A stretch of 48,651 nucleotides of DNA, counting the filler, from Jimgerdemannia flammicorona (Eukaryota): the NCBI GenBank assembly GCA_003990765.1. It is 2 parts of 2 records of this genome, joined end to end, with 100 filler letters (N's around TTAATTAATTAA, not from the genome) between each part and the next. Parts side by side here need not be neighbours in the genome. Positions count along the whole stretch, not along the records: positions 1 to 24,278 come from RBNJ01000994.1; 1 more part is not named here. One strand, given 5' to 3'. The notes beneath the pieces are model-generated. The model saw nothing but the letters and a program-made list of their open reading frames with translations, did no database searches and was not told the DNA's origin. Of this stretch, positions 1 through 47,516 are shown one piece after another. The translations under genes were made by a program, and so were the position numbers. The stretch's first letter is position 1; each line of letters begins with the position of its first letter.

Positions 1-999
1 GAACTTGGCCATCTAGGAGGAACAAATACATATGACAAGGCAAGAAGAACAATATGGTGGCCAGGGATGGAGGAAGATATCAGACAATTCGTCAAGACCT
101 GTGACAAATGCCAGAAACAGAAACAAGACCAATGAAATCAAACCCCAGGATTAGCACACATAGAACCAGTACCATTTGCCCACATTGCAATGGATGTAAT
201 CGGCCCTCTACCCTTGACCCTGACTGGTAACTGATACATCATTGTCATCATAGACCTTTTTACGAAGTGGATAGAAGCAGGACCTCTCAAGGAAGCCAAT
301 GCACAGTCAATCGCCGATTTCTTCCACAAGGAAATCATCTGCCGGTTCAAGACCCCAACACAAGTAACTACAGATAGAGGAACAGAATTCGTGAACCAGC
401 TCTTTGAGGTTCTCTACAAGAAGTACAAGATCCAGCACATTCGGACCACAGCCTATCACCCTCAAGGAAACGGACAAGTAGAAAGGACCAACAAAACCCT
501 CAAGAATGTTATCGCCAAGATCTGTGATAACTATGAGAATTAGGATCACTATCTGCCAATAGCATTATCTGCTCTCTGGGATATCCAATCACAAAGCACC
601 CACTTTACCCCTCGAGAAATGCTGTTCAGAGAAGAATGTTCTCAAGGAACCCTATCATCTAATAGAGATACTGTATGGAAATATGTGGACATGGAAATAT
701 GGAGACTACACCAAATCAGGAAGAAGGCTGAGGATTACATAACCAAGGTGCAGACACTACAATGGAGGAATGCGGAAAAGACCCACAAGCCCTTGGAGAT
801 TATCCAGATAGGAGACAAGGTCCTGGTGTATTGGAACATGGTAGAAGCTTTATGGTCACGAAAACTGGAGCCCAAGTGGGAAGGACCTTACCTTGTGCAA
901 GATATAAAAGGGACCACCTTTTGGCTACGAAAACCCTCAGGCACAATAATCCCCACCACCATTCACTGAAACTGACTCAAGAAATATCATGGCCAGTAA
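1..999 (+). pseudogene. Gypsy family A copy 1, integrase (partial, cut by window start)
   Basis: Shows HLGG..WWPGM..CDKCQ (HHCC), IAMDVIGPL, TDRGTEF, YHPQGNGQVER and KLEPKWEGPY. Internal stops sit mostly at CGA>TGA positions; true stop is TAA at 997-999. Collinear with the integrase of copy 3 (about 30975-31973). Confidence 0.95.
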
Positions 1000-1450
1000 C
1001 AAAAGTACCGCGATGGCACTCAAGATCACTAGTGCTACCCAAAGAGCCATCGAAAGACAATGGCACACCACCGAGCCTCCGACCATAGAGCTATACTATG
1101 AGGATATTCAGAGTATTGTTCAGACTCATCTCTCTTGGATCTCGCACTTTAGAGTCTATCAATATTGGGCAGAATTCCAAGAGTACTTCAAGCTTGGACA
1201 GGTACTCAATCAGGATCCAGCAATGACTAAGGAGGACTGGATTGCCAAGTGTCAACTCTTCCACTCACAGATCACTATTACCAAAAGGATCCACAAGTTA
1301 TTCTGAGAAGATGAAGCAGTGATAGACCACCTGAGAGGAGTAACTTCCACTGACTTCGAGAAAGTGAGAAGACATCATTGGGAAACAGTCATATAGCAAA
1401 TTGCACAGTATAAGACCATACAGACCATTGAAGCCTGAAAGTTTGAATAG
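989..1450 (+). pseudogene. Family A accessory ORF3 (about 153 aa, unknown function) between integrase and PPT
   Basis: ATG overlaps the last pol codons. Reading MASNKST..QEYFKLGQVL..KRIHKLF(R)EDEAVIDHLRGVTSTDFEKV.. reaches TAG 1448-1450, the same length as 31963-32424. Internal stops are transition-type. Confidence 0.8.
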
Positions 1451-1487
1451 ATGCCTCAGGGACGAGACCATCCATTCAGGAGGAAGT

Positions 1488-1964
1488 TGTGATGGTACAG
1501 CCAGATTTGGAAGAAGGAAATAGGGAATAGACACTTGATTGCACCCATTCCCAAAGTAGTATAGCATTATAGTTAGCAGTCCTCGATTTCAACATTGTCT
1601 AAATTCTTAGACATTGTCTAAATCTTAGACATTATCCAAATCGAATACCCCGATTTAGTATAGTATTTAGACATTGTCCAAATGTTTCAACAAAGTCCAA
1701 ATAACTCATTTATTACTTAGCCACTCTCTCATAGCTAGCAAACTTGTATAAATAACCCAGTATCTTTGAGTGAATAAACCTCAGATCGAAATAGTTCAAA
1801 GTAAAGAGATAAGCAAAGGAACTAGTAAGCCTGCAGGCAGATACACTTCGAACTCACACACCCTTCCCTGCAACTTCAAGAGACTCTGTGAGAGTCAGAA
1901 CAGTTAAGTTTTCAAGATACAGAAATCCAACGTACTTTCAAGAGTAAGCATCCACTACGTTACA
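1488..1964 (+). repeat. Family A 3' LTR of copy 1 (variant U3 module)
   Basis: Follows PPT AGGAGGAAGT; TGTG...TACA termini; TATAAATA near 1748 and AATAAA near 1773. Homologous to 3141-3608, 26250-26716 and 32461-32927. Confidence 0.95.
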
Positions 1965-3140
1965 CTACATACAGACTATTTTCATACTCAATTACTAGTT
2001 CACTAGTAATAGAAAAATATATTCTGATAGAATCAATGTTGTAGGAATAGTAAGATAATTATATATTATTTGGAAAAGATTTATATATATCTTTTGATTC
2101 TACTATTATTAATCAAATATATCTATACTTAAATTGACAGGATATTCTAAAAAATAACTAAATATTATAGATATATATAAATATTTATATCAAATTAATA
2201 ATATTGAGCAATATATCCAAAAGCCAATACTTATAATTTAAGCTCATCATCCACACTGATGTATTTTTTCTTCTCATAGATTAAACTAAGAAAATCATCA
2301 TCTGAAATTTATATACCAAGAGTATTATTAAGCTTATAATTCCTTTCTCAAATATCTTCTATTTCATACTTCTACTTATTAATTAACTTCTTATTTCATT
2401 TTATATTTAAAATAATATATATTAATATATTGATCTAAGGCTGTAGTAATACTATATAGTGATATAGTTTTTCAGTAATACTTGAGTAGTTTCAAATAGA
2501 TATTTTCAGCAGCAGTTACCATAATCTATAAGAAAAAAAAAAAAAACTCCTCTAAATTCTTCTGAAATTATCTTCAAAATTCTTCTGAATTATTTTCAAA
2601 ATTAAACTTTATTATATTGTTCACCATATCTATATTCTTCAATAGTATCATCAAGATAATTATATAACTAATTAAATAATAGAATTATAGCTACTATTAT
2701 AGAATATTTTGATACTGATATAGCTTTTGTCACTTTGGCAAAAGATTTGAGAAATTAGTAAATTAATTCAAATTATTGCTACATATCTTCAGATATATTA
2801 CTAAGCTATCTATCTATCATATATAGAATACTCAAGCCCTGCTAGTTAAAAGAGTTAGTCAGTATTGAAATAATTTCCAATTTCATTCTAAGTTAGTAGA
2901 AATTCAAAATAAACATATCTTATAAATTTTTATAATATATATCATATTGTATATTGAACTCTATCTCATTGAAATATCCAAAAGAGACTTTAAAGTAGAA
3001 ATTCCAGATAATTCACAAGCTTTCTAAGTTATGTCTATTATTGTACTAAATTCTTGATCTTTTAGTTAATCTTCCATAATATTATAATAGATTCATTAAT
3101 AGAACCAAGAGTATCTTAAACAATGAGATTCAATATATAT
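1965..3140 (-). pseudogene. Heavily mutated hAT transposase relic (catalytic region to C-terminal dimerisation domain)
   Basis: Minus-strand translation gives ILNLIV*D, LDISMR*SSIYNM (cf. LDVxTRWNSTYxM), FLKSFAKVTKAIS.SKYS, KLLKYY..TALDQ (cf. ATVLDPR) and NYLTIPTTLILSEYIFS (cf. DYLAIPATSVPSERxFS). Confidence 0.8.
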
Positions 3141-5585
3141 TGTGATGGTATAGCCAGATTTGGAAGAAGGAAATAGGGAATAGACACTTGATCACACCCA
3201 GTCCCAAAGTAGTATAGTCACATAGTTAACAGTCCTCAATTTCGCAACTTGCTAAATATTTCACAAAGTGCAAGATCGAGCTCTCCAATATAGTATAGCA
3301 TTTCGCAACTGGCGAAACATTTTACAAAGTGTTAAATGACTCATAACTTAGCCATGTAACTCAGTAACCATCTCATAGCTAGCAAACTTATATAAATAAC
3401 CCAGTATCTTCGAGTGAATAAACCTCAGATCGAAATAGTTCAAAAGAAAAGAGATAGTAAAGGAACTAGTAAGCCTGCAGGCAGATATACTTTGAACTCA
3501 CCCACCCTCCCCTGCAACTTCAAGAGACTCTGTGAGAGTCAGAACAGTCAAGTTTTCAAGATACAGAAATCTGACGTACTTTCAAGAGTAAGCATCCACT
3601 ATGTTACAACTTGGTGCCCATTGGCTGGTGATTCAAGACGAATCCCTCACTTTCAAGCTGAACAATGAACAACTGCCACCACCCAAACAACCATACAAAC
3701 TGAGCCCCAATACCCAGACAAGATGGATATGAGATCACCAGTATTCCATGGATATACCTCAGACAAATCGATCATCACCTTTATTGATGATTTTGAGCAG
3801 TATGCTGCTGTAAGGACCCTGACAGCAGCACAGCAAGTAGCCCTCATGCCCTTCAGCCTACGAGGCCCTGCCAGAGTAGTATTCACAGCTGCAACCTATA
3901 CAGGAAATGATACCAATACTATACTGACAGCACAGAAGACCTGGCTCCAAAATACATATTATACAGACAAGATCAAGCAAGCTCTGAAGGATTAGCTCAA
4001 TACAACATGCCAAGGAATGAGCGAGGATCCAAATACATTCTATACCAGAATTCGATATTAGATAATCCTTGCAGACTATGCTGCTGCTATCCGAGATCAA
4101 GTAGCCGAAGCAACCTTTATGAAAGGAGTTCATCCAGAAATAGCCATGGCCATCCACTCATCACCAGTGATTCTGGATCTGCCACAGAAGGTCACCTATG
4201 CTCAGCGATATTGGATAGCCAGACATCCACAAGACCATACAATGGAAAGGGTCACAGGAGTCAGAATTGAGGCACCCAAGGCAACCAGTGTGATCTCTAC
4301 CACAATGATCAATCAGAACACACCTCAGCCAAAAGCTACAGAGCAGCAGAAGAACAGTGACCCTATGGAGGAACTCGCCAAAAGGTTTGCTGAAATGACC
4401 ACCCATCTGGGAGACATGGTAAAGGAAATTCGAGGAAGAGACCACTGCCCTGTTCAGAAGTTTGCCGCCACCTCAGATAAGAAGAAAGATACCTGCTATA
4501 CTTGTGGAGAGGAAGGCCACTACTCCTATGAATGCATGAGTGAAACCAAGCACAAGGCTCAACCAAGCAATGCTACACAAAACAAGAAGCAGGCCAATAT
4601 AATTACCTTCAAGGAGATCGGATATTCTGACAAAGAAGAATGGGAGGCCTATCCTGCTCAGACCACCAAGAAGGATGCTCGCAAAGAACCCTACAAGAGA
4701 CCACCAGGAAGATCCAAGAAGAACTCAGTAGAAAAGCAAATGGAAACTGCCACAGAAAGTCAAGTCAAAGAGATGGACCAAGATACAGAGCTGGAGCAAG
4801 CAGTTCAAGATATCATCTGAGGAACCACTCCAGCCAGTGAAGGAGAAAAAGAAAGGAAGCTTTGCAAGACAAAGACCTTTAAGTATGATATCTTCAAGGA
4901 TCTTAGCCAACAAAAGATCAATGCAACCTTTGGTCAGCTTGCAGAAATCCCAACATTCAGACAGCAAATGAGGTTTGGACTTGCCGAAATAACTAAGGAA
5001 CAGGGATGGAAGATAACCAAGGCCAATAACACTCAAGAGGACTCAGGAGAAGAAAGTGAGGACAATTGCAAAACCTCTACATATGCAACATGCCAAATCA
5101 AAGATAGAATCTTTGAGGCCATCATTGATACAGGAGCAGGAGGATGCCTCCTCAGCAAGAAGGCAGCAGACCGCCTAGGTTGGGATGTAGAAGAAGCAAC
5201 AAAGCTGGTGTTCGTCACAGCCAATGGCACAAGAGCCATACCTCTGAGAAAGATCTGAGATGTTCCCATCAAGATTGGAAGAGCAACCATCCCAGTAGAT
5301 GTAATCATAATCAATGCCACCAACTATGACATCCTCATCAGCAATCAATGGCTTCACAAAGCCAAGGCAGTAATCGATCTCAACACCCAGAAGATGCAGA
5401 TCACCTACCAGGGACAGAAGATATGAATTCCCATCAATGTCAACAAAGGAGTCCTGCCTGACATAGAGGAAGAAGAGAGTGAGCAAGAGGAAGCTTATAT
5501 GGTGACTACTCCAAAGAAGAAGAAAGTTGGATGGATGAGTGAAGAAGAATGGTACAAGAAGATGGCAGAAGGCTATGTACCACCA
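3141..5585 (+). mobile_element. Gypsy family A copy 2, 5' half: LTR 3141-3608, PBS from 3612, gag, CCHC knuckle, protease; truncated by the LINE
   Basis: LTR TG..CA; PBS TGGTGCCCATTGGCTGG; gag with CYTCGEEGHYSYEC; protease IIDTGAGG and DILISNQWL. Homology to copy 3 stops near 5585. Confidence 0.93.
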
Positions 5586-5645
5586 GGTTACACAACCTTT
5601 GGAAGGTACTTTCAACATTGTTTTCAGCAAAAAGAGACTAACAAC

Positions 5646-7670
5646 ATGGCAACCGATAGGCAACCTGAGGTGCATACTGGGCAGGGTGGCCCAAGCACTT
5701 TCGACTGGCAGCAGGTGGGGAGGGGTCCAGGCCTGGGGGGAGGTATGAGGGGCCTGCTGGTGGGTGGATGTGAAAGGGGTGGAGGAGGTGGTGGAGGATC
5801 AGGATCTAGGAGAGCAAGCTTCACAGAGATGGTGAAGGGGAGACAGCCGATGTCAGGGCTGGAGAGCTGGCTGAGGAAGGGCAAGGAGACCAAGAAGGCA
5901 ATGGTGCCGGGGGGTGTGACCCTTGGAAGGGGGGGCGGTGGAGCTGTGGGAGTAGTGGCTGGGGGGGGTGTGACTGCTGATGGTGTTGGGACTGTCAATC
6001 TGGAAAAAAATCCAGATGTGACAGCTGATGGCGAGACTGAGTGGCTGAGGCTTAGAAGACAAGGGGACTTGGCAGATGGTGTAATGGGTCTGGCGGTGGC
6101 CCTGTTACTCAAGAAATTGATTTCAGCATTCACGGTCACACTGTGCTTCTGGGGCCTGGTAGTGATGGTGAAAATGGTACTGGGGCTCATCACTAAGCAG
6201 GTGGCAGATGTGGTATCTGTGAAGTTTTTGAAGGGACTGGAAGGAGTGGAGGTGGGTTTTGAGGAGATGGCACCACTGGAGGAGGTGCTGAAGGTTGGAT
6301 TGGTGGTTGGGAAGGTGTGTGTTCCAATGGCATGGTGCCTGAAGTGGGACCCCAGGGTGGTCCAACTGCTGGTGAAAGGAGTGCTGATGGTGACAGTGAT
6401 GGAGACAAGGAAGAGAGTTGAGGATTTCATGGCGGAATATGGTGAGGTGGTGGATATCGGGTTCAGGGTCTGGGAAGGGACCTCACTCAGGACTGGTGAC
6501 ATGGATGTGAGGATTCGGCTGGCTGGGAAAGAAGCCACTGGGAAGGCAAGGGATTGGCCTTCGGCGATGGTCTGGGGAGTAATCCTGTGTAAGGTGACAA
6601 GAGTAAAGGGGAGTGAGGAGGAGGAGGAGGATTTACTGGAAGCACTAGAAGAGCTGGGGGGTGCTGTAGAGAGGCGAGCGAAGGCTTGAGAGGCTTTTGA
6701 AGAGGCAACACACTTGGAGGTAGTGGATGCAAAGTGGATTCGAGTGACCAAGGAGCAGTGGGAAAGGGCTCAGGGGCGTAAGAGGCAGAAGAAGTTGCTG
6801 GCCAAGCTGGATAGCAGACCACTGGGGGAGGTGAGCAAGGTGAAGGGCACAGGGGGAGCTGAAGCGAGTGTCTGGGCCAGTGAGGGGGAGGGGAAGGACA
6901 AGAAGGAGGCAGGGGAGGATAAGAAGAAGGCTGGGAAGGACTCATATGCAGATGGTACACTGGAGGTGTGGGAGGAGGACTGTGTGGACTCCCCTACCCC
7001 TACCCCTCTCATCAGGCATGGCCCGGCTTCCCGGAATAGAGTGGTGGAAGATGTACCAATGCAAGGGACCCAGAGGGTGTAATTCAGAGTTCCAGAGATA
7101 GTGTATGGGGGACAGGTGGTGGCGGCTGGCAAGGAGGAACTGGTGGATGTCCTGGAAGTATGGGATGAGTCTGCAAGTGCTGGAGCTGACACCACAATGT
7201 TGGATGGAGGGAGGCCAGCGACTCCAGGGGGGAAAGAGGTGGAGAACTTGCTTTGGATGTGCCGGATGATGAATAACCTGGCGGCAGAAGAGTTGGGGGA
7301 AGTGGACTTGCAAGTGATGAGTGATGAGCATTGGGCAGGAATACTGCAGGGGGATGGCATAATGAAGGCATTGAAGGCGGAAATTCTTGCAGTGTACCTG
7401 GAGGAGGAAGGGTATGAGGTAGATAAGGAGAGGGAGGAGGAGATGGTGGTTGTTGCTGGAGAAAGGACTGAATACTGCTGGAACAAGCGACATGGACTAC
7501 AGCTCTAGCAGGAAGCATATATCGAATACTGAGAGGAGTTTGAGGAGAAGGCCAATGGAGAGATGAATGAGCTGCTGGCTGGATTGGAGGCTCAGAGGGC
7601 AGAAGAGGAGGAGGTGGCTGCGGAACATAATTTGGACAAAGCACAGGAGGAGATGAGCATGGAGCAGTAG
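5646..7670 (+). pseudogene. LINE ORF1 (Gly-rich N-terminus, RRM-like region, acidic C-terminus)
   Basis: One frame joins the ORF-track pieces 5499-6689, 6714-7082 and 7101-7508. SFTEMVKG motif; LLVKGV..AEYGEVVDI..RTGDMDVRI resembles Tx1-type ORF1. Confidence 0.75.
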
Positions 7671-7703
7671 AGGCTGATTGATGACATCACATATATCATC
7701 AAT

Positions 7704-10700
7704 ATGAACAGTACAATCAATATTTTCTCTTTGAACATGAATGGGTTATGGGGTGCTTCTCAACATAGGAACATTTTTACTTGGATGAAGGGATTGGAGG
7801 CTGATCTCTTCCTCTTGCAGGATGTCCAGTGTGAAGATGACTCTGATAGGTTAGAATGGATAAAGGAATGGGGAGGTGTGGCGATTTGGAAGGGCAAGGT
7901 TGGGATTTTGGTTAGGAAAAGCAGAGGGGAGATACAGAATGTGTGGTGCTGGGGGGAGAGACTGATCTGGGGAGAGTAGATTCAGGCAGGCTGGGAGCCA
8001 GTTATGATTGGCTCCTGCTACTGCCCTGTGGTATGGGGTGAGAGGGTAGATTGAGTGAAAGGCTTACAGGAGAGTGGATTACTTGTGGAGGCTGGGGTGG
8101 ATGTGCTCGGAGGAGATTTCAATATGGTTAAGGATATACTGCTGGATAGAACAGATGGAGGACAAGGTGCTGAGAGCAGGAGTGGAGGGCTGGTGGTATG
8201 GGAGGAAGTAGAAAGGCTAAGTGCACTATTGGATATTGAAAGGGAGTGCTGGGGGAGTAGGAGGGTCTATACACATTGGGCAGGGGGTCTGGGGACTAGA
8301 ATCAACTGGATTTTGACAGCCTGCTGCTGGGGACTAGATGTTTGAAAATCATTGGAGATGGAATGATGTCCATGGTCAGATCACTGGGGGCTTTTGGGAC
8401 AGGGGTGCTTTGGGGGAAGTGGGGATGGGCCTGGACATTGGCGCCTCAATTCCTCTTTGTTAGATGACAAGACCCGGTGGGATGAGTGGGCTAAAGACAT
8501 TCAACTGAGGGTGGAGAACTGGAGGCAGGAAGGGGCCACAGTTGGGACTCGGTGGATGAGGATGAAGGAAATGGCCAGGATTTACTGGAAGGAGGCTAGC
8601 AAGGAGGCAGGGAAGCAGTGAAAACAAAGAGTATGCTGGGTCTCTGCTAGATTGATGAGGCTCCTGGAGGAGTGGGCAAGGCTGACGATGTTGGAGGAAG
8701 AAGAAGATTGGAGATTAATGAGGGTGAAAATGGAGGTTGGGGAACTTCAACAGGTGCTGCGGGAGGAGGAAGAGGCAAGGGTACAGAGCTTGGCAGCACA
8801 TCTTCACTGACAGGATCTGGAGGAAGGAGAGAGGCCTTCCAAGCTTCTTACAAGGGCCCTTAAGGTGAGGTGGGTCCAGTAATGGTGGGAAGGGGTATTG
8901 GACTCTGATGGTGTACTGGTGTGTAGTGTACAGGACATTCTTGGATCGCTGAAGGAGAGATGGAGTGGATTGTGGAGTGAGGAGGAGGGTGGGGTGGATG
9001 CGAGGGTGGGGTGGATGCTGCTACAATTGAACGAATATTGGAGAATTGGCACCCACCACAAGTCGAAGGGCTAGGGGACCTGGTGATGTCTGTACAGGAG
9101 AATGAGATCCACCAGGTTCTTGCCGTGACAACATCCAGTATGGCACCTGGGGAGGATGGTCTGCCCTGGGACTTTTGGAAGTGAATGGTTGAAGTCCCAG
9201 GGGTGATGGGAGAGATGACAGCATTGTGTGACCTTATTCTACAGACAGAAAGGTGGGTGGGGGAGCAGGACCTTGGGCTGGTGACACTGCTCTACAAAAA
9301 CAAAGGAAGGCAGGAGGATTGGAAGAACTAGCGGCCGATAATGCTGCTAGATATGGACAGAAAGTTGGTAACTAAGGTGGTGGTGGTGAGACTACAGAAG
9401 GTGGCCCAGCAAGTCATGGGTGTTGAGCAGAGGGGATTTGTGAGTGGTCGGCTTATCAGGGATGGCACTGTCTGGGTGCATGGCATTATCGAAGGGGCAA
9501 GGACCTGTGGACTGGATGGGCATCTAGTTTTCTTGGACCAGAAGAAGGCATATGACTGGGTGCGAAGAGTCTGGCTGGAGAAAGTTTTGGATAGAATGGG
9601 GGTACCACATCAATTTCGGTCAACAATGGTCAGCCTACTGGAAGGGAGTAGGGCTGCACTCATATGTAATGGACATAGAGGGGTAGCATTTCCCTTGGGA
9701 AGGGGGGTGCCCTAGGGGGATCCATTGTCCCCCATTTTGTATGCTCTTTCTCTGGAACCACTTATAGACTGAATTAGGTGGAGGATAGTGGGGCTCTCTG
9801 TCTTTGGCATAGGATGGAAGGTTGGGGCCTTTGCTGACAACATGGTGGTGGGTTTGGATTCAATTGCTGATGTTGAGGAGCTCAAGAGGACTGTGGAGTG
9901 GTATGAGGAGTATTCTGGAGCTAAGCTGAATTGGCATAAGTGTGAGACGATGGTGCTCAGTAATGGCCTCGTGGGAGGGGAAGTTATAGGAACAATTGTC
10001 CCCACCAGTGAAGCAGTGTGGTACTTAGGTATCTACTTGTCAGTCTATGGGTCATTTCTGCCCAAGCTTTAGTGAGAGCAGAGGATTGGAATCTGGGAGG
10101 AGGCCCTGCAGAGTTGGGGGGGACAACATTTTTCTCTGGCAGGACAGGTCTCGATTTTGAATGTCTACTGGCTGCCAAAGTTGTGGTACCTGGTATATCA
10201 TCTGGACTTCCCAGCCTGGGTAGTGAAGAGATTGATGAAGTTGGCGAAGAGGTGGATTTGGGCTGGCAGGCAGAGTCAAATTAGTTGGGAGACCTTGTCC
10301 CTACCAGTGGCAAGAGGCGGTCTTGGGCTGGTTGACTTCCCAAAACAGTTACACTGCTTGAGAGTATGGTGGCTGAAGAGGGCGGTGGAGTTGAGAGGAG
10401 GTGGATGGGTTTCTCTGTTACAGAAGTTATGGGAGAGGTGGGCATCGCCAAGGGGCTCAACTGGTGATCTCCTCTCCTTGGTTGGGCTTCAGAACACTGC
10501 CCAACTATGATATAAAGGATTTTGGTGGGGAATTGCAGAAGGAGTGTACTGCATTGGTATTCATTGGCAGGGGAATGAAGGTGAGAAGGATTGGGACCCG
10601 GCAATGTGGAGATAGGACCATATACTGCTGAGTGGTACTTCTTTAGTTGAGTTCGACATTGGTGATAGAATGGAATGCCAAAGGGGACCAGGCCAGGATC

Positions 10701-11377
10701 TGTGGCCTAGCAGTTGGCAAGGAGTTGGAATTGGCGAAGAGTGGAACTGGCATGGTGTTTGGACCTGGAGTGCTGCAGTAAGAGCATGGCTGCCACCAAA
10801 GTACTGGATGGTCTGGTGGCGCATGCTGTAGAGGAATATTATGCTCAATTTTTGCTCAGGGCACCTTGTTGTAGGGGGTTGCTTCGACTGTGAGGAGTGC
10901 CATAATGTAGAGCAGGAGGGAGGTTATGTACAGATGCCAGAACATTGGCTAGGAGAGTGTGAGGTGTTGGGGGATTTTTGGCAGACAATTGGAGATCGAT
11001 TAGAGGTACAGAGTAGGAGTGATGAAGTACGGGGGTGATGAGAGGACTTGAAGGATAGATTGGTAGGGGGGATAGGGAAGGAGTGGCTTACTTTAGGTTG
11101 GGCTTTGGCTATTTGGGTGGGGCTAACCAGTCATTGGCTATTTTTTTTTGAGGATGGGAGGAGACAGAGCTTGGGGGACTGGCTGCTGCGATGGCATAGG
11201 CTTATAGAAGACACCTTAACAGGCTGGTGGCTGGGTTGGGAGATGTGGGGTGGTCAGAGGCACCGCTTGGTGGAGAAAATCTGTGGGCAAAGTGGGGGGA
11301 GAGTGGGGGTAGTTGGTGAAAGGGTGATTTTCATTCGTGAGGAAGTAGGGAGGGGCCCCCCTGTGGGGATTGGATAG
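7704..11377 (+). pseudogene. LINE ORF2: APE endonuclease, reverse transcriptase, C-terminal Cys/His finger
   Basis: Endonuclease: SLNMNGL, LLQD, GGDFN, SDH, WRLNSSLL. RT: PGEDGLP, N*RPIMLL, QRGFV.GR, LDQKKAYD, GVP*GDPLSP, FADN, GAKLN..K, YLG. C-terminal C..C..H...C. Confidence 0.93.
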
Positions 11378-11474
11378 TGGGTCAGAATGATGTATATTTA
11401 TTCATAGACTGGTAATAAAGGCGGAGTCCAAGTGACTATAAAAAAAAAAATATATATATATATATAATTACACA

Positions 11475-12665
11475 GCTCCTTTCTCTGCTATCTTACTGGT
11501 CACAAGATTTGGTAGACAACCTTTTGAGTTCCCTTTCCCCTATTATTACTCTCTTTACCTTGTATTGGTTTACTGTGTCTGCAGGGACATAGTGGGAGGA
11601 GGGCAATGGTGATAAGTTGCCCTTTTATCAGTATCAGATTGGTGTCTTCTCTACTTTTTTATAGATTCTGATACCTTCAGCTATATCTGAAGTATGCTCA
11701 TTTTAGTATAGTACCTTCTTCCTTTTGCTATTACCAATAAAGTATTATCTCAAAGCATTACAGATTATATAGGGAGTTGGCTGATCTTAGGCATCAAGTA
11801 CCCAGTATAGATTATCTGTAGGTTCTTAATACCTGTGGTGAGATTCTCTGGCTTTGGCAAGCTTTCTAGTAAGCACAGTTCTAGTATATATGACTGTTTT
11901 TCAGATATTGTTGAGATGGGAGGAGAGATGGCTGTCATAAATAAGAGGAAGAGTAATAATGGTAAATCAGTAGAGTGCTAGACTGAGAGCAGTTATCAGG
12001 GCTGGAGTGGGTGCTGCTTCAGTAAGATCTTTTAATTAGTACAGAGCAGTTAGGTAGTAGGTATCACTCTCAGCTTCTTTTGGCAATATGTGGGGTTAGG
12101 CCCCAGTTATTGAAGGAGAGTCAGGGGGCCTGAGGCTACCTATTTCAGATATCTTAGCTGTACTCAACTAAAACTGGAAGCTGATATGGTAATATAATTG
12201 ATGCCCACAGACTTGAGTAGTAGAGTATTAGAGATTTTCTTCCATCTCATATATAAATCCTTTACTTATTTTATCTGGGAGAACTAGGCTCTATCTACTA
12301 TAATACATATACTTTGATGAGAGTTTTTTCTTTATCTGTCATCCTTCTTAGGGTGGTAGGGGCTATTCTATTCAGCTTAGGCATAGTCTTATACATATGT
12401 TGGGGTCTCAGACATATGCTTTTGGTCATTGGCATATGGCTGAATTCCTCCTGGTAATAGAGAGAGTATAGTGCACAGAATGAGATATAGACCACTATAG
12501 ATTCTGCTATATCTAGTATAGTTGAATTGCTGGATAATATCTAGTCTAAGTTAATGAGAAAGCAGTGCTTTATAAGTAGTAGGGGAGAGTTTTAGCCTAT
12601 ATAGTCTAGGTTTCCTTCTAATAAAAATCTGTGGGACTCTGAGTCTGTAAAACAAAAAAAAAAAA
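11475..12665 (+). mobile_element. About 1.19-kb non-coding poly(A) retroposon, older copy
   Basis: Collinear with 47517-48651 from the same 5' start (GCTCCTTTCTC); AATAAA near 12620; poly(A) ends at 12665. Confidence 0.8.
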
Positions 12666-15129: not shown

Positions 15130-16649
15130 TATCACATAGTGGTCACTGAGTCCTTCAAATATATCAGATTCTCTTCAAGATATATCTCTTAGACTAACTC
15201 AAGTTTGTTATAAGCAAGTTCTTATTGGAGTGCCTTTCCAAGGTCTTATAGTCCTCAAACTTCTTATCTTTAACTGTCTTGTTATCTTTTAGATTACTTG
15301 TAAGGAAGTATATGTAAGTAAACCAGAACTGACTTTATTTCAGAGAAAATAAGAGAAGTATTTATACAAAATATAATTCAATGATTGCTAAGATATAAAG
15401 CTAAATATAAATTTCAATAACTAAAATAAAATGCTAGGATAGAAAAAACTACTAAGTTCCAGAGCCAGCACTGATGGTTGTATAGATTCAGAATACTGGT
15501 ATAATTCAGTATTATGTCAAAATGCTGGTGCTGGTATTATTCAGTATAACTAAGAGACTTAGAGCAGAATGTTCAAGACCATAGGGACTTCATCATCAGA
15601 GATCAGGATGTCTTCGAAGGAGATGAGATCTGCAAACATCTCATCTGTCTCATCATTGTCATTGTCATTATATAGATTGCATATTTTACATACTTTGTAT
15701 ATGTTATGTATCTCACATATATCACATGGGATGATGTCATCACTGATGATATCATCATATTCAGTGGGAAGAAGGTCTGGCACTCTCCAGTCTATGAGGT
15801 TCTCTTTCACAAAATAGAGAACAAATGTGGGGTCTTGGAGAGGTCTAACCTGGATGCTTGGGACTTAGAATACTGAGATCAATCTTTGTAGGAATTGATC
15901 TGAGTTGTCCTGGCGAATGAGATGCCAGAAGTCTTCTACTTCATCACTATTGGACTGGGCTTCTGTAGCCACCCTGGCATCTAGTATATTGATATGGCAG
16001 GATGATAGGTCTCTGAAATCTGGGACTTTAACATACTCCAAGTTGGGGATCGACCATAGTGCATGCCTGAAGATCTGATGGATCTTCTTAGCTGTCCTTG
16101 TTTTGCATATATCCATGAGAGTGGTATCTTGTAGCTCTTGAGTGCTGGCCTGTGGGAACTCCCAGCAGAGGAGGTTTCCTATTTCATACTCCTGCCACAT
16201 TTTGAGACATTCGGTAGTAATGGTGATTCTTGTTTCCATTTCACAACAGTAGAGGATATAGTAATAAGGGTCACTAGTACCCAGGTTGACACTAGGAGTC
16301 CTTCTTGAGCAGATCCTCATGGCTCTTCTAATGTCTTGAAACATCCTTTCTTCAACTAAGGTATCTTAGTGGTTCCTTGATCTTGAGGTTTGGCAAGCAG
16401 TAGACATTTCATTTGTAGTAAGTCTTTAAGCTATTTTGGGATTGGTGGGTCTTATTGATTGCTACTACTGTGGTTTCTTGATCCTTCTTTTATATTTCTC
16501 AAGATATCTGAACTATGGTCACAATGACTCACAGTTGGTCATCATCACTCATCTCATATGCTATATGATCTTCTTGTACTCTGATCTGATGGCTTGTAAG
16601 GAAAGGCTGTCTCCTGTGCTAATGTCATCATTCTGGGGTCATCATTACA
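15130..16649 (-). repeat. Family B 5' LTR, about 1.5 kb, containing ORF3 in U3
   Basis: On the minus strand it starts TGTAATG at 16649, exactly at the junction with family C gag, and ends GTGATA (GTGACA in the other copy) just before the PBS. Collinear with 23068-24278. No convincing PPT between ORF3 and the promoter segment. Confidence 0.75.
15559..16407 (-). pseudogene. Family B ORF3, mutated copy
   Basis: MSTACQ..MFQDIRRAMR..; homologous to the open copy at 23518-24270; contains internal stops. Confidence 0.85.
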
Positions 16650-23067: not shown

Positions 23068-24278
23068 TGTCACGTAGTGGTCGCTGAGTCCTTCAAATAC
23101 ACCAGATTCTCTTCAAGGTGTATCTCTTAGACTAACTCAAGTTTGTTATAAGCAAGTTCTTATTGGAGTGCCTTCCCAAGGTCTTATAGTCCTCAAACTT
23201 CTTATCTTTAACTGTCTTGTTATCTCTTAGATTGCTTGCAAGGAAGTGTGTGTATTGCACTGAGAAGACTGACTTTATTTCAGAGGAAATAAGAGAGGTA
23301 TTTATACAAAATATAATTTAATGGTTGCTAAGATATAAAGCTAAATATAAATTCTAATAACTAAAACTACTAAGTTCCAAGGCTGGCATTATTTAGTATC
23401 ATATCAAAATGCCGGTACTGGAACAATTTCGCGTCACCTCAGAATACCGGTGCTGGCATTATCCAGTGTTACATGAGAATACCGGTGGTGGCATTATCCA
23501 GTGTAACAAAGAACTTTTTAGAGCAGAAAGTTCAGGATCATGGGAGCTTCATCATTATCATCACTGAAGGAGATGAGATCCGCGAACTCTTCATGCAGGT
23601 CACACGTTTTGCGTGCTTCGGGTATGTCGCGCAGGATGATGTCATCGCTGATGATGTCATCACGTTCGGCGGGGAAATCAGGAACAAGATCTGGAGCTCT
23701 CCAGTCTATGAGGTTCTCTTCCACAAAGTAAGGGACAAATGTGGGGTCCTGGGGAGGTCTGACCTGGATGCTTGGGCCTTGGAATACTGAGATCAACCCT
23801 TGTAGGAATTGGTCTGGGTTGTCCTGAAGAATAGGGTGCCAGAAGTCTTCTACTTCTTCGCTGTTGAGGGTGATGGTGGACTGGGCTTCTGTAGCTACCC
23901 TGGCTTCTAGTGCATTGATGCGGCAGGATGACAGGTCTCTGAAGTCTGAGACTCTAACATACTCCAAGTTGGGGATCGACCATGGTGCATGCCTGAAGAT
24001 CTGATGGATCTTCTTTGCTGTCCTTGCCTCACGTAGGTCTATGGGGGTGGCATCTTGTAGCTCTTGAGGGCTGGCCTGTGGGAACTCCCGGCAGAAGAGG
24101 TTTCCTATTTCGTACTCCTGCCACATTTGGAGGCATTCGGTGGCAATGGTAATCCTTGTTTCCATTTCACGGCAGTAGAGGATAAAGTGATAAGGGTCTG
24201 CAGTACCCAGGTTGATGCTAGGAGTCCTTCTTGAGCGGGTCCTCATGGCTCTTCTGATGTCTTGAAACATCCTTTCCT
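23068..24278 (-). repeat. Family B LTR (3' or solo), CpG-intact, cut by the assembly gap
   Basis: TGTCACGTAGTGG terminus at 23068 with no PBS beyond it; minus-strand TATAAATA near 23300; 35-bp tandem duplication at 23441-23508; collinear with 15130-16350. Confidence 0.88.
23518..24270 (-). CDS. Family B ORF3, open 250-aa frame, unknown function (N-terminus probably lost in the gap)
   Basis: Uninterrupted frame. Shares QEY.[IL]G and K[KR]IH.[IL]FR....I..L..V...DF with family A ORF3; acidic C-terminal tail. Confidence 0.8.
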   Translation of the reverse strand: MFQDIRRAMRTRSRRTPSINLGTADPYHFILYCREMETRITIATECLQMWQEYEIGNLFCREFPQASPQELQDATPIDLREARTAKKIHQIFRHAPWSIPNLEYVRVSDFRDLSSCRINALEARVATEAQSTITLNSEEVEDFWHPILQDNPDQFLQGLISVFQGPSIQVRPPQDPTFVPYFVEENLIDWRAPDLVPDFPAERDDIISDDIILRDIPEARKTCDLHEEFADLISFSDDNDEAPMILNFLL

Positions 24279-26189: not shown

Positions 26190-26249
26190 ACAATATCACT
26201 CTTATTATCAGTACCTTATAGATTCTTTTATCTCTAGCTCTAAATTTAT
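26190..26249 (+). pseudogene. 5' part of the PMCA/PMC1-type ATPase relic (left limit uncertain)
   Basis: DSFISSSK immediately before the insertion joins the SYIITS.. segment after 32927 (cf. DPFIISGSKVLEGVG). Confidence 0.55.
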
Positions 26250-28849
26250 TGTGACAGTATAGCCAGATTTGGAAGAAGGAAATAGGGAACAGACACTTGA
26301 TCGCACCCAGTCCCAAAGTAGTATAGCCACATAGTTAGCAGTCCTTGATTTCACCACTTGCTAAATATTTTGCAAAGTGCAAGAACAAGCTTCTCGATAT
26401 AGTATAGCATTTCGCAACTGGCGAAATATTTCACAAAGTGTTAAATGACTCATAACCTAGCTATATAACTCAGTAACCATCTCATAGCTAGCAAACTTGT
26501 ATAAATAACTCAGTATCTTCGAGTGAATAAACCTCAGATTAAAATAATTCAAAGCAAAGAGATAGCAAAGGAACTAGTAAGCCTATGGACAGATACACTT
26601 CGAACTCACCCACTCTCCCCTATAACTTCAAGAGACTCTGCAAGAGTCAGAACAGTCAAGTTTTCAAGATATAGAAATCTGATGTACTTTCAAGAGTAAG
26701 TGTCTACTATGTTACAACTTGGTGTCCATTGGCTGGTGATTCAAGATGAATCCCTCACTTTCAAGCTGAACAATGAACAACTACTACTACCTGAACAACC
26801 ATATAAACCGAGCTCCAATACCCAGACAAGATGGATATGAGACCACCAGTATTTCATGGATATACCTCAGATGAATCAATCATTATCTTCATTGACAATT
26901 TCAAGCAGTATGCCACTGTTAGGACCCTGAGAGCAGCACAGCAAGTAGCCCTTATGCCCTTTAGCCTATGAGGCCCTACAAGAGCAGCATTTATAACTGT
27001 AAACTATGTAAGAAATGATGCTGATACTACACTGATAGCACAGAAGACCTGGCTTTGAACCACCTACTATACAGATGAGATCAAGCAAGCTCTGAAGGAT
27101 CAGCTTAATACAATATACCAAGGAATAAGCAAAGATCTAAACACATTCTACACCAGAATCTGATATCAGATAATTCTTGTGGATTATGCTGATGCTATCT
27201 GAGACCAAGTAGCTGAAGCAACCTTCATGAAAGGAATCTACCCAGAGATAGCCATGGCCATCCGCTCATCACCAGTGATTCTGGATGTGCCACAGAAGGT
27301 CACCTATGCTCAGCAATATTGGATAGCCAGACATCTACAAGACCATATAATGGAAAGGGTCATGGGAGTCAAAATCAAAGCACCTAAGTCAACCAGTGTG
27401 ATCCCTACCACAATGATCAATCGAAACACACCTCAGCCAAAAGTTACAAAGCAGCAAAAGAACAGTGACCCTATGGAGGAACTCACCATAAGGTTTGCTG
27501 AAATGACTGCCCACCTGGGAGATGTGACAAAGGAAATTTGAGGAAGAGACCACTGCCCTGTTCAGAAGTTTGCTGCCACCTCAGACAAAAAGAAAGGTAT
27601 CTACTACAGCTGTGGAGAAGAAGGCCACTACTCATATGAATGTATGAGTGAAACTAAGCACAAGGCCCAACCAAGCAATGCTACTAGAAATAAGGAACAG
27701 GCCAATATAATTACCTTCGAGGAAATTGGAGATTCTGATAAAGAGGAATGGGAGACCTATCCTGCTCAGACCACCAAGCAGAATGTTCACAAAGAATCCT
27801 ACAAGAGACCACCAGGAAGACCCAAGAAGAACCCAGTGGAAAAGCAGATAGAAATGGTCACCAAAAGCCAAGCTGAAGAGATGGACCAAGATATGGAGCT
27901 GGAACAAGCAGTTTAAGATATTATCCAAGGAACTACCCCAGCTAGTAGAGGAGAAAAAGAAAAGAAACTTCATAAGACCAAGACTTTCAAGTATGATATC
28001 TTCAAGAACCTTAGCCAATAAAAGGTCAATGCAACCTTTGGTCAGCTTGCAGAAATCCTAACATTTAGACAACAAATGAGGTTCAGACTTGCCAAAACAA
28101 CCAAGGAGCAAGGATGGAAGATAACTGAGGCCAATAATGTTCAAGAGGACTCAGGAGAAGAAAGTGAAGACAATTGCAAAACCTCTGCCTATGCTATCTG
28201 CCAGATCAAGGACTGAGTCTTTGAAGTTATCATCAATACGAGAGCAGGAGGATGTCTCATCACTAAGAAAGCAGTAGACTGCCTAGGCTGGGAGATAGAA
28301 GAAGCCACCAAATTGATGTTTGTTACAGCTGATAGAATACGAGCAACACCTCTGAGAAAGATCTGGAATGTACCCATCAAGTTTGGAGAAGTCACCATCC
28401 CGGTAGATGTCATCATCACTAATGCAACCAACTATAATATTCTCATTGGCAATCAATGGCTTCACAAAGCCAAGACAATAATTGATCTCAGTGCACAGAA
28501 GATGCAAATCATCTACCAGGGAAAGAAGATCAGAATTCCCATCAATGTCTACAAAGGAGTCCACCCAGAAATGGAGGAAGAGCAAGAAGAAGAAGCCTAC
28601 ATAGTTACCACAAAGAAAGGAAAAGGTAAGCAGTGGACAGAGGAAGAATGGTACAAAAGGATCACAGATAAATATGCCCCACTAAGAAGGTGCCTCTATG
28701 GTGAAAGAATGTACTGTGCCCAGCACTTGGATCGCTGCTACTCTTGCATCATCAAAGTGAAAAAGATCTCTAACAAGCCAAAGAAGAACCAGGAGGAACC
28801 AGAAGATGGACCACCAGAGCTATTGAATGACAGCGATAATGAAGAAGAC

Positions 28850-29280
28850 ATCATAGTCAAGATACGAAGGATCCACCCCAATATAGTCTTGCCACAGTAC
28901 AAATTGGAGAATGCAGCAGGAATGGACCTATCTACCACAACACACACAATCCTCAAACCACAAACCACTACTATGCTGGAAACAGGAATCAAAGTAACCA
29001 TCCCACCAAATTATGTCAGAATCCTCAAGACAAGGAGCAGCTTGGCAAAAAGCGAAATATCTATAGAAGGAGAAGTTATTGATTCAGACTATACAGGAGA
29101 AATTCTCCTCCTTGCCAGAAATCATAATCCAACAATCCCATTTGAAGTAAAGAAGAAGGATTGGCTGGTACAAATGTTCATCCTACCTGTCCTTAACCCA
29201 AGAATCAATGAAGTCGTAAACATCAGACAAACTCAGTGAGGAAGAGCTGGATTCAGCTCTACAGGAAGAGGAGTCCTTGC
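28850..29280 (+). pseudogene. dUTPase domain between protease and RT in family A
   Basis: NAAGMDL, ILKTRSSLA, GEVIDSDYTGEI, VQM and RAGFSSTG correspond to trimeric dUTPase motifs I-V. Confidence 0.93.
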
Positions 29281-30779
29281 AGCAATCAAGATTACAGAAT
29301 TGGAGTACAAGAAGGAGGAAAGCCAAGATAAACACCCTTATGTAATCGGAAAGAACTTTCTCCTCACAAAGGAGTTGCAGAACCTCTTGCATATATTTGA
29401 AGATGTACTGGTCACAGATTTCAAGGACATCAAGACTAAGAAACCCTTGTACTATCATGATATCAATACTGAAGATGTGAAACCAATCTATCAAAAAGCC
29501 TGCCCTATTCCGCCAGCATACAGGGAATGGCTCAAGACTGAAATCAAGGAGATGGAGGAATCCAATATCATCAAGGAAGCCAGCAGCCCTTGGTCTTTAC
29601 CTATTGTCCTTGTACCAAAGAAAGGAAGCCAACTAGGAGAATTTGCACCAAGACTCTGCACAGACTATAGAAGACTCAACGAGATCACAGAGAAGGATAG
29701 ACAACCATTGCCCAAAATTGGTGACATTCTTATCATGCTGGGGAATGAATCATGATTTTACACCACTCTAGATCTGTTCTCAAGATTCTACCAAATTGGC
29801 CTTACACCTGAAGCCAGTAAAAGATCAGCCTTCATCACTCCTGATGGAACCTATGTCTATCTCCACATGCCCTTTGGAATGTGCAATATACCAGCAAGCT
29901 TCTAGCAAATGATGAATAGCATCTTTAGAGATGTTATGGAAAAATGGATGATGGTATATGTGGATGATGTGATCATCTTCAGCTGAACAGCCAAGGAGCA
30001 CTTGGAACATATTGAGGAAATCCTCAGAAGGCTTTGCAAAAATGGCCTCTACATTAAGCCCAAGAAATGCAAATTGGGAGAAGAAGAAATTGATTACCTT
30101 AGATACATCATCAACCATGAAGGAACACACACAGATCCCACAAAGATCATGGCAGTAGCAGCATACCCAGTACCTATCAGTATCACTGAAGCCTGAGCCT
30201 TCATGAGACTAGCATCCTATTATAGGAGATTTATTTGAAGATTCTCCCACATTGCCAACCCTATCTATGATCTATTCAGAAAAGAGGTCAAGTTTCAGTG
30301 GACACAACAACAGCAACTAGCCTTTGATGAACTCAAGATCAGGCTGACCCAGGCCACAATCTTGAGAAGACCTGACTGGATATGCGAATTTATTCTACAG
30401 ACAGATGCCAGTGCAATGGGACTTGGAGCTGTCCTTGCACAGAAGAAGAATGGTACTGAGTATATAGTAGCCTATCTCAGCTGAGATACCCACAGAGCAA
30501 AGCAGTCCTATGAGTCATATAAGCTAGAATGTCTTACAGTCATCTGGGCTGTAGAGAAGTTCCACTATTACCTGGCAGGAAGATACTTCACCATCCAGAC
30601 AGACCACTCAGCACTCATCTGATTGCTCACCACCAGTGAACCCAAAGGAATCTACACCCGATAGATCATGAAGCTGCAAGCATATGATGCCACAATCACT
30701 CACCGCCCCAGAAGAACCAATGCCAATGCCAATGCCCTCTCACGGACACCCTGAAGGACCCCACCCCCACAAAATTACC

Positions 30780-31973
30780 ATGAATAGGGAGTTGTACTAT
30801 GGAATCATCAGCTATCTGGGGCAGCAAAAGATGCCTCTGTATCTGGAAGAATGGACAAAAACAATTATTAATCAGACATAGAAACAATTCGAAACTAATG
30901 GAGAAATACTCAAGAAAGGATAACAATTAGTCATCCCTGAGCACTAGAAGAATCAAGTAATGAAAGAAGTACATAAACAATGCCACATAGGAGGAACAAA
31001 TACATATGACAAAGCAAGAAGAACCATGTGGTGGCCTGGAATGGAAGAAGATATCAGACAATTCATCAGAACCTGTGATAAATGCCAGAAACAGAAATAA
31101 GACCAATGAAACTAGGCCCCGGGATCAGCATGCATAAAACCAGTACCATTTGCCCACATAGCAATGGATGTAATCGGTCCTCTATCCTTGACCCTGACTG
31201 GTAACTGATATATCATTGTCATCATAGACCTTTTTACGAAGTGGATAGAAGCAGAACCCCTCAAGGAAGTCAATGCACAGTCAATTGCTGATTTCTTCTA
31301 CAAGGAAATCATCTGCCAGTTCAAGACTCCAACACAAGTAACTACAGATAGAGGAACAGAATTTGTGAACCAGCTCTTTGAGGTTCTCTACAAGAAGTAC
31401 AAGATCCAGCACATTTGGACCACAGCCTATTACTCTCAAGAAAATGGATAAGCAGAAAGGACCAACAAGACCCTCAAGAATGTTATTGCCAAGATCTGTA
31501 ATAACTATGAAAACTGGGATCACTATCTGCCAATAGCATTATCTGCTCTCCAAGATATCAGATCACAAAGTACCCACTTTACCCCCCAGAAGATGCTATT
31601 TGGAGAAGAAAGTTCTAGTGGAAGTTTATCAGCAAATAATGATGCAGTCTGGAAGCATGTGGATATGGAGATACAGAGATTACATCAAATTAAAAAAAAG
31701 GCAGAGGATTACATAATCAAGGTACAGGCACTACAACAGAGCAATGCAGAAAAGATCCACAAGCTCCTGGAGATTATTAAGATAGGAGATGAAGTCCTGG
31801 TATACCAGAACATGGTAGAAGCTTCTTGGTCATGAAAACTGGAGCCCAAGTAGGAAGGACCTTACCTGGTGCAAGATATAAAAGGGACCACTTTCCAACT
31901 ACGAAAGCCCTCAGACACAATAATCCCCACCACTATTCACCAAAATCAACTCAAGAAATATCATGGCCAGTAA
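30780..31973 (+). pseudogene. Family A integrase, apparently a separate ORF
   Basis: ATG at 30780 is in the +1 frame relative to RNase H, whose frame stops at TAG 30785-30787; HHCC, DDE and GPY motifs follow. Confidence 0.8.
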
Positions 31974-32424
31974 CAAAAGTACTGTGATGGCACTCAAGAT
32001 CACTAGTGCTGCCCAAAGAGCCATCAAGAGACAATGGTATACCATCGAGCCTCCAACTATAGAGGAGTCTTATGATAGTATCCAAAGCATTGTACAGACT
32101 CATCTCTCTCGAATCTCACACTTCAAGACCTATCAGCATCAAAACGAATTTCAAGAGTACTTCAAACTTGGCCAAGTACTCAACCAAGACCCAGAAATGA
32201 CCAAAGAAAATTGGATCGCAGAATGCCAGCTCTCCTATTCCCAGATCATCATTGCTAAGAGAATCCACAAGCTATTCTGAGAGGATGAACTAGCACTAGC
32301 CCACCTGCGAGAAGTAACTCCCTCAGACTTCGACTGAGTCAGGTGACATCATTGGGAAACAGTAATGTAATAAATTGTACAGTACAAGACCATACAGACC
32401 ATTGAAGCCTGGGAGTTTGAATAG
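31963..32424 (+). pseudogene. Family A ORF3, copy 3
   Basis: Same start, length and final stop as 989-1450, with many synonymous differences. Confidence 0.8.
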
Positions 32425-32927
32425 ATACTTCAGGACAAGATCATCTATTCAGAAGAAAGTTGTGATGGTATAGCCAGATTTGGAAGAAGGAAATAGGGAA
32501 TTGATACTTGATCACACCCAGTCCCAAAGTAGTATAGCCACATAGTTAGCAGTCCTCAATTTTGCCACTTGCTAAACATTTCACAAAGTGCAAGATCGAG
32601 CTTCTCGATATAGTATAGCATTTTGCAACTGGCGAAATATTTTGCAAAGTGTTAAATGACTCATAACCTAGCCACATAACTCAGTAACTATCTCATAGCT
32701 AGCAAACTTATATAAATAACCCAGTATCTTTGAGTGAATAAACCTCAGATCGAAATAGTTCAAAGCAAAGTGATAGCAAAGGAACTAGTAAGCCTATAGG
32801 CAGATATACTTCAAACTCACCCACCCTCTCCTGCAACTTCAAGAGACTCTGCAAGAGTCAGAACAGTCAAGTTTTCAAGATACAGAAATCTGATGTACTT
32901 TCAAGAGTAAGCATCCACTATGTTACA

Positions 32928-44729: not shown

Positions 44730-44744
44730 ACTCTCCCTTCTTAG

Positions 44745-47514: not shown

Positions 47515-47516
47515 GT

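Follow-up and report, generated by a model that had tools for sequence, protein, structure and literature searches.

A third gene downstream of integrase in a dUTPase-bearing, chromodomain-less Ty3/Gypsy lineage seen in Jimgerdemannia flammicorona

Introduction

Extra genes are common in long terminal repeat (LTR) retrotransposons, and a role is known for almost none of them; the few that have been studied, CERV of Cer1 among them, brought to light steps of the retroelement life cycle that were new. A stretch of 48,651 nt of Jimgerdemannia flammicorona DNA (NCBI GenBank assembly GCA_003990765.1; two parts of the assembly joined end to end, hereafter the window) raises the question whether a further gene of this kind exists. 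Nested retroelements fill the window, and in one Ty3/Gypsy family among them, here called family A, a frame of 462 nt (open reading frame 3, ORF3) follows the integrase, in the position of env. Is this frame a gene, and what might its product do for the element? Our analysis showed that the frame is a true gene, the third in a Ty3/Gypsy lineage which carries a dUTPase between protease (PR) and reverse transcriptase (RT) and lacks a chromodomain.

Results

The ORF3 frame in the window

Family A occurs three times in the window, always on the plus strand (A1, A2 and A3), and two of these occurrences include ORF3. A1 (1-1964) is the 3′ end of an element, consisting of integrase, the ORF3 frame and the 3′ LTR, and A2 (26249-32927) is a full-length copy with two 468-bp LTRs. 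The frame was found where a preliminary description of this DNA had placed it, at 989..1450 in A1 and at 31963..32424 in A2, with 153 codons and a terminal stop, and it does start inside the last integrase codons: the ATG at 989 is accompanied by the pol stop TAA at 997-999, and the ATG at 31963 by TAA at 31971-31973. That these copies are open frames, as was also claimed, proved wrong. A1 has three internal stops (1304-1306, 1394-1396 and 1436-1438, i.e. codons 106, 136 and 150) and A2 has five (32278-32280, 32335-32337, 32344-32346, 32368-32370 and 32371-32373, i.e. codons 106, 125, 128, 136 and 137). The stop at codon 106 is common to both, and the first open piece, of 105 amino acids (aa), is the longest. 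Both copies are dead pseudogenes, in elements whose pol is broken too.

Intact relatives

When the first 105 residues were used as query in a word-indexed search, eight proteins were obtained from nine candidates. One of these, P0013, has 153 aa and is colinear with the entire ORF3 frame. Cluster look-ups added P0028, P0042, P0043 and P0045, each of 153 aa and 71–80% identical to P0013, with no indels within family A and with identical last residues. The five intact proteins are independent relatives, all from metagenome data. P0043 is encoded at L001:4001-4459, on a metagenome contig (L001) with a near-intact element in the order PR-dUTPase-RT-ribonuclease H (RNase H)-integrase-ORF3-polypurine tract-LTR. 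PR to RNase H form one open frame of 940 aa in L001, integrase consists of two open pieces, and ORF3 is intact. In tblastn searches the L001 ORF3 protein matched A1 at 989-1447 (62% identity, E 1e-61) and A2 at 31963-32421 (67% identity, E 3e-67), and the L001 integrase pieces covered 1-267 and 271-1029 of A1 at 81–87% identity. In A1, A2 and L001 alike, ORF3 is an accessory ORF in the env position, on the sense strand between the pol stop and the polypurine tract with the 3′ LTR.

The protein family is small. A profile search against 1.84 billion representatives gave four matches at E <= 0.001, and a mixed profile of families A, B and C (the latter two are described below) gave 16 matches from 3277 candidates; the listed relatives are named only "hypothetical protein" or by accession. 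L001 was the one copy confirmed out of 414 pattern matches in metagenome contigs, and none of the 35 pattern matches in viral contigs or the 173 in genome contigs was confirmed as an ORF3 copy. Among 918 six-frame ORFs only the two family B copies were detected; neither the element's own gag/pol nor the other Gypsy families in the window yielded a paralogue of ORF3.

Purifying selection

Selection was measured on three DNA sequences, A1, A2 and L001. The ratio of nonsynonymous to synonymous substitution (dN/dS) calculated by NG86 in the ORF3 frame was 0.12 between A1 and A2 and 0.10 between A2 and L001, against 1.05–1.6 in the two shifted frames of the same stretch. Between A1 and L001 the synonymous sites are saturated, the proportion of synonymous differences (pS) being 0.83 and that of nonsynonymous differences (pN) 0.215. 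For ORF3, pN/pS was 0.20–0.26 (bootstrap intervals 0.13–0.35, upper bounds 0.30–0.35), and for the 239 integrase codons directly upstream it was 0.16–0.25. Purifying selection on ORF3 is thus about as strong as on integrase, and the signs of it that had been reported from the sequence were upheld, as dN/dS is not near 1.

The same is true of the third-position bias reported between the two window copies. At codon positions 1/2/3, A1 and A2 differ by 17/13/42 transitions and 7/5/10 transversions, and the synonymous transversions GGA/GGC and GCC/GCA that had been pointed out are both present. The transversions number 16/12/41 between A1 and L001 and 15/11/35 between A2 and L001. Because transversions alone keep the third-position excess, the selection signal is not an artefact of C>T decay. 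The window copies do show such decay: when changes are polarised against L001 as outgroup, C>T or G>A make up 58 of 72 on the A2 branch and 49 of 111 on the A1 branch. The nucleotide identity across the ORF3 stretch is just 65–80%, so the stretch is not a conserved cis element.

We also observed that pS is higher in ORF3 (989-1450: 0.55–0.83) than in the adjoining integrase (271-987: 0.33–0.50) in the same three copies, which could be explained by recombination between lineages or by a different mutational load.

The element that carries ORF3

The host element is a Ty3/Gypsy LTR retrotransposon, with two LTRs, a CCHC gag and the order PR-RT-RNase H-integrase. In A1, the 3′ part of pol (1..999, plus strand) contains the integrase core and a C-terminal GPY/F-type region, is decayed by in-frame stops and matches Pfam rve at 235-540. 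Its polypurine tract, AGGAGGAAG (1478..1486, plus strand), begins 27 nt past the terminal stop of ORF3 and abuts the 3′ LTR (1487..1964, plus strand, delimited by BLASTN against the A2 LTRs); the identical string precedes the LTR of L001. In A2, the 5′ LTR (26249..26716, plus strand, 468 bp) shares 91.45% identity with the 3′ LTR (32460..32927, plus strand) according to a BLASTN comparison of the pair. The gag-pol region of A2 (26831..31973, plus strand) encodes gag with a CCHC knuckle, protease, dUTPase, RT, RNase H and integrase, and is fragmented by stops and frame changes. The order of Pfam matches in A2 and L001 is zf-CCHC, aspartyl protease, dUTPase, RVT_1, RT_RNaseH and rve. The dUTPase between protease and RT was identified in A2 (28217-29236, Pfam E 4e-18), in family B (12595-13008, minus strand, E 4e-13) and in L001 (L001:3-2822, E 1.5e-28). 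No chromodomain was found by Pfam in the pol of A2 or L001, and L001:3283-4041 gave rve only.

The third occurrence, A3 (plus strand), comprises a 5′ LTR (3140-3608), gag and the start of pol, and resembles A2 until about 5569 and the L001 pol protein until about 5603. At the start of the L001 LTR, an 18-nt unit is present in four or more tandem copies (L001:4600-4685). A GTAAG, similar to a splice donor, was seen by eye near the end of the A LTRs, a 5-mer that is frequent by chance.

Families B and C

Family C includes P0023 and P0040, and is represented here by P0023 (165 aa), one of the four library matches (E 5.3e-4, entire library). The family A profile aligned with P0023 in hhalign at E 5.3e-10 (probability 96.6%), and on this profile comparison the kinship of A and C appears solid.

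Family B has two ORF3-like copies in the window, both on the minus strand. Copy 1 (23518..24270, read from 24270 to 23518) is an intact 250-codon frame from its second ATG, its upstream part being lost in an N run, and its protein has 89% identity to P0005 (247 aa). In copy 2 (B2, 15562..16411) the pol stop TGA at 16411-16409 is followed by the ORF3-like ATG at 16407-16405. An internal stop lies seven codons ahead of the second ATG (16344); the frame is then open to 15865, and the C-terminal half is in another frame (15864-15562). A hidden Markov model (HMM) of A, B and C matched B2 at 15868-16365 (E 1e-52) and 15562-15864 (E 8e-26). Relatives of the family B protein have 247–323 aa. Ahead of the B2 ORF lies an integrase end that is decayed and of the type found in A, and this position after the integrase end, common to ORF3 of A and B, supports their kinship.

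The profile evidence on this kinship is divided. In hhalign, A against B gave E 9.2e-5 with a probability of 59%, wider profiles gave E 1.4e-4 with 52%, and C against B gave E 1.3e-3 with 18%. When A and B were compared in pairs by BLASTP, alignments of 26–29 residues were obtained, at no better than E 0.053 and 0.007. With an HMM of A and C, all five B proteins outscored all 2000 shuffles. Among the 918 six-frame ORFs, however, the two B ORFs reached only E 0.031 and 0.079, and an unrelated ORF came close by at 0.082. The kinship with the divergent family B, which had been claimed from a shared motif, is therefore suggestive: the E values are in its favour, but the probabilities are low and B stands barely above an unrelated ORF.

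The motif itself held in part. K[RK]IH.[LI]F occurs in both A and both B copies, but where an "R" was said to follow it, both window A copies have a stop codon. As it was written, QEY.[LI]G matches family B only; family A requires a gap of one residue, and the spacer before I..L..V...DF has five residues rather than four.

Two observations on family B concern its own make-up. Its proteins have a long acidic C-terminal tail (e.g. 23518-23900, minus strand) in which hydrophobic-acidic patches recur and whose end is conserved; net charge falls to −6 per 20 residues, and family A has no such tail. On the minus strand, 15129-16411 and on to about 12667, the integrase end, ORF3 and LTR of B2 run straight into the gag, protease and dUTPase of a B element. 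The two stand in tandem and have one LTR in common, and the downstream pol breaks off near 12667.

Protein properties and predicted fold

No signal peptide or membrane segment was found in the five intact A, B and C proteins, whose hydropathy maximum (Kyte-Doolittle, 19 residues) is 0.19–0.74, in agreement with the earlier view that the product does not look like an envelope protein. Their grand average of hydropathy (GRAVY) is −0.41 to −0.59 and their isoelectric point (pI) is 4.5–6.8. The proposed "conserved small soluble factor" in the env position is thus supported as to an accessory ORF that is conserved and soluble, but it is broken in the window copies.

Pfam gave nothing above its curated cut-offs for the A and B proteins. 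The best match, below cut-off, was to HTH_Tnp_Mu_2, for which the first 105 codons of A2 gave E 0.0025 (0.0054 when the stops were read through); among 18 members of the A/B/C set it was found in two at E <= 1, with a best E of 0.031. Pfam Chromo had no match at E <= 10 in the A and B proteins or at E <= 1 in the 18 members. A sequence-profile search of PDB gave a spectrin repeat as its best match (E 0.012), and the ESM Atlas returned unnamed or unrelated clusters only (score 0.95 for P0013 and 0.89 for P0003). With no Pfam match, no PDB-sequence match and no significant fold match, the statement that ORF3 is uncharacterised was supported; no characterised retroelement domain matched it.

AlphaFold2 models were made from nine sequences and from 18 A/B/C sequences. 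In the latter, residues 61–120 reach a per-residue confidence (pLDDT) of 70–86 and form four helices, and the ORF3 protein is predicted to be all-helical. In a structure search independent of Foldseek (48161 chains), the top rows were DNA-binding helix-turn-helix domains: CENP-B(1-129) (1hlv_A) had Z 4.9 with a root-mean-square deviation of 4.1 over 69 aligned residues (Foldseek E 2.6 for 1hlv_A), and SopB, ParB, VirB and KorB had Z 3.8–4.8. With this tool a Z under 8 may mean merely a common helical arrangement, and we treat the predicted helix-turn-helix resemblance as a lead only.

Homodimer prediction gave a score of 0.47 (runs 0.44–0.50), against 0.00 for the best of three controls, and passed the mark, with a contact agreement between runs of at least 70% and a partner pLDDT of at least 63. 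On a microbial benchmark this mark was reached by 21 of 30 proteins solved as one-chain pairs and by none of 23 solved as single chains; on a eukaryotic benchmark, by 17 of 29 pairs and none of 30 single chains. The predicted interface comprises residues 40–76 and 84–94 and overlaps the invariant columns of family A.

Discussion

What the ORF3 protein might do

Taking these results together, ORF3 is a real third gene, whose product is a soluble protein of 153 residues that is predicted to be all-helical. The balance tips slightly towards the reading as a whole, in which our best guess at the function is a dimeric nucleic-acid or chromatin-binding cofactor. The prediction described above suggests that the protein probably forms a homodimer via its most conserved helices, at about residues 40–76. 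More tentatively, it may act in trans for the element by binding nucleic acid or chromatin. Its second conserved motif (AK[RK]IH..F, then L..V...DF), set in a helix-turn-helix-like core, would form the binding surface, and the cofactor might help the expression of element RNA or the choice of integration sites, in a lineage without a chromodomain.

The junction with pol bears on how such a protein would be made. Relative to pol, ORF3 of A and of B is read in the +1 frame. Its ATG precedes the pol stop by 8 nt in A1 and A2 and by 41 nt in L001, and follows it by 1 nt in B2. In A1, A2 and L001 the ATG is flanked by A at −3 and G at +4, and the upstream Met of B2 is the start in three of ten aligned B proteins. 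The close spacing of stop and start in A and B suggests that ORF3 translation is coupled to pol termination. After long ORFs, reinitiation may take place at a start very close to or upstream of the stop; SART1 retrotransposon and several viruses use termination-coupled reinitiation, and in viruses it declines past roughly 30 nt, according to the accessible portion of one source (PMC10275272). As far as that portion describes the SART1 UAAUG and the calicivirus TURBS, the likeness is that in A1, A2 and B2 the start is a few nt from the point where a long upstream ORF stops; the differences are that no upstream RNA structure was detected for ORF3, nor an rRNA-complementary motif, for which no search was made, and that the distance in L001 is 41 nt. 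Translation from its own ATG by reinitiation on the genomic RNA could accordingly be imagined for ORF3, a possibility to be held with some reserve. With the same reserve, the protein could be translated from that ATG on a spliced subgenomic RNA, by analogy with other LTR-retrotransposon ORF3s, which are typically expressed from spliced messages as far as the consulted part of PMC5408684 goes.

If all of this were combined, ORF3 would define a new class of retroelement accessory protein: a DNA- or chromatin-binding factor, small and dimeric, that arises by pol-coupled reinitiation and, in a lineage without a chromodomain, takes charge of target choice or protects new copies from silencing, with A, B and C as diverged members. 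In this full form the proposal is improbable.

Several results weigh against the cofactor reading or its parts. As to the gene, the codons past the shared stop (the last 47, 42 of them usable) give pN/pS 0.41 between A1 and A2, with an interval of 0.16–1.15; that constraint in this part is not demonstrated by the A1-A2 pair alone is a weak point. As to the mode of translation, the distance of 41 nt in L001 exceeds the reinitiation range of about 30 nt, within which A1, A2 and B2 fall, and the 130 nt before the ORF3 start fold no better than shuffles in all four sequences (z −0.03 to 0.29). As to function, nucleic-acid binding is not favoured, because the intact proteins are neutral to acidic (pI 4.5–6.8). 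As to structure, the mean pLDDT of the models is low (50.6 from nine sequences, 59 from 18); Foldseek found nothing at E <= 0.001 in PDB (best 0.88 for model 1 and 0.92 for model 2) or BFVD (best 0.41); and none of the 48161 chains reaches Z 5, so that the fold matches are under the noise level of the tool. The homodimer pass may also be less reliable here, as only one of seven eukaryotic pairs without an older solved relative reaches the mark.

Alternative explanations

ORF3 might instead encode a factor of the Rev or CERV kind, translated from an mRNA that is subgenomic and spliced, which acts in the nucleus to export the unspliced genomic RNA or stabilise it. We consider this unlikely. The spliced messages described for ORF3s in the accessible part of PMC5408684 would suit it, and so would a protein that is small and helical with predicted self-association, as would the basic N-terminus of family B, where the net charge is +5 to +6 in a block of 20 residues. 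In family A, however, an arginine-rich motif was not found, and no conserved branch-point-like sequence was seen before the ATG in the three A-type sequences, by eye and with no formal splice-site scan.

Less likely still is that ORF3 is no separate gene product and forms a C-terminal extension of integrase, produced by a programmed +1 frameshift in the short overlap and providing a targeting module in the place of the chromodomain. Yeast Ty1 and Ty3 use +1 frameshifting. The +1 position of ORF3 relative to pol in A and B agrees with this, the ORF3 frame is open for 13 codons ahead of the ATG in A2 and L001, and integrase ends without a chromodomain (rve is the only Pfam match in L001:3283-4041). 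On the other hand, the same Met starts every full-length A protein, in the ATG context given above, and the position of the pol stop relative to it varies (8 nt after, 41 nt after and 1 nt before). In B2 the ORF3 frame is open for just six codons ahead of the Met, and a slippery site was not identified.

That the frame is no gene at all, its conservation reflecting cis-acting constraints near the polypurine tract or chance, is very improbable and largely refuted. It could draw on the stops that close the frame in both window copies, on the lack of a known domain match and on the tiny size of the family, with four of 1.84 billion representatives at E <= 0.001. It does not account for constraint in one frame only, with a third-position excess in both transitions and transversions, for five intact colinear versions of 153 aa at 71–80% identity, or for the match of a distinct family C protein (hhalign E 5.3e-10), and a nucleotide identity of 65–80% is too low for a conserved cis element.

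A remnant of an envelope or fusogen gene, which the env position would allow and as which ORF3s of 210–230 aa with membrane segments are read in rotifer elements in the part of PMC5408684 seen, is hardly credible, given five intact A, B and C proteins with no signal peptide or membrane segment, a prediction of helices throughout, a soluble composition (GRAVY −0.41 to −0.59) and no env-like match in Pfam or among structures.

Comparison with known systems

The place of ORF3, directly after the GPY/F region of integrase, is that of the chromovirus chromodomain, from which it differs by having no chromodomain signature, a separate frame, its own ATG and a predicted all-helical fold. Extra ORFs in plant Ty3/Gypsy elements have reportedly been surveyed by Steinbauerova et al.

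Closer to the present case, some fungal Gypsy elements are labelled as having an "add. ORF with unknown function", and a basidiomycete element with dUTPase between PR and RT is mentioned, in the consulted text of Novikova et al. 2010 (PMC2864245). These share with ORF3 a sense ORF between pol and the 3′ LTR that is lineage-specific and without a known domain, a comparison by figure legend only; ORF3 here has 153 aa, a start abutting the pol stop and measured selection. We found no description of the ORF3 protein family in the literature, and the figures and supplement of PMC2864245 may bear on this point.

The layout with PR-dUTPase-RT and an ORF3 exists in bdelloid rotifer elements as well as in basidiomycetes, according to the accessible part of PMC5408684. 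Juno, Vesta and TelKA of bdelloid rotifers have, as described there, a CCHC gag, the order PR-dUTPase-RT-RNase H-integrase, no chromodomain and an ORF3 after pol. Their ORF3s are fusion glycoproteins of about 600 aa or proteins of 210–230 aa with membrane segments, whereas the ORF3 studied here encodes a soluble protein of 153 aa; enzymatic ORFs are mentioned too in that source.

CERV of Cer1, a Gypsy family element of C. elegans, is likewise a non-envelope accessory protein of novel sequence beyond gag and pol. In the part of PMC10309623 consulted, CERV acts for the element itself, is made from a spliced mRNA and exports genomic RNA; the likeness to ORF3 is one of description. The brtn gene of Boty-like elements in Botrytis cinerea is also an additional gene inside a fungal Gypsy element, but it is an antisense gene according to the accessible part of PMC8365987, and ORF3 is on the sense strand.

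ORF3 is a tractable case: its selection signal is clear, natural copies exist that are intact, a dimer interface is predicted, and the way it adjoins pol suggests that it is translated in an unusual manner. Should its product prove to act in targeting or against silencing, it would show how chromodomain-less Gypsy lineages handle integration or evade the defences of their host. For annotation, the ORF3 frame belongs to the element and should not be called a host gene.

Other features of the window

A GC-rich stretch (50–55%) at about 5570-12600 separates the truncated A3 from the truncated B element. It contains a glycine-rich ORF of 396 aa (5499-6689) and RVT_1 matches at 9332-10069, and is probably another inserted retroelement, with a related repeat at 47502-48521.

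Two further Gypsy families are present. One, on the plus strand at 16755-20404, has a Ty3 capsid-like gag, RT and integrase, and the other, on the minus strand at 42221-47515, has a chromodomain-like motif near 45.4 kb. An HMM search found no ORF3-like frame in either of them.

At 24282-24378 the string ttaattaattaa lies between two N runs and looks like an artificial contig joint. This joint removes the upstream part of family B copy 1, and an A-type LTR end lies beyond it (24379-24490).

An AT-rich tandem array was found at 21462-22167. Its units start 63–69 nt apart and are 62–76% alike, and neighbouring spacings of about 136 nt correspond to two units.

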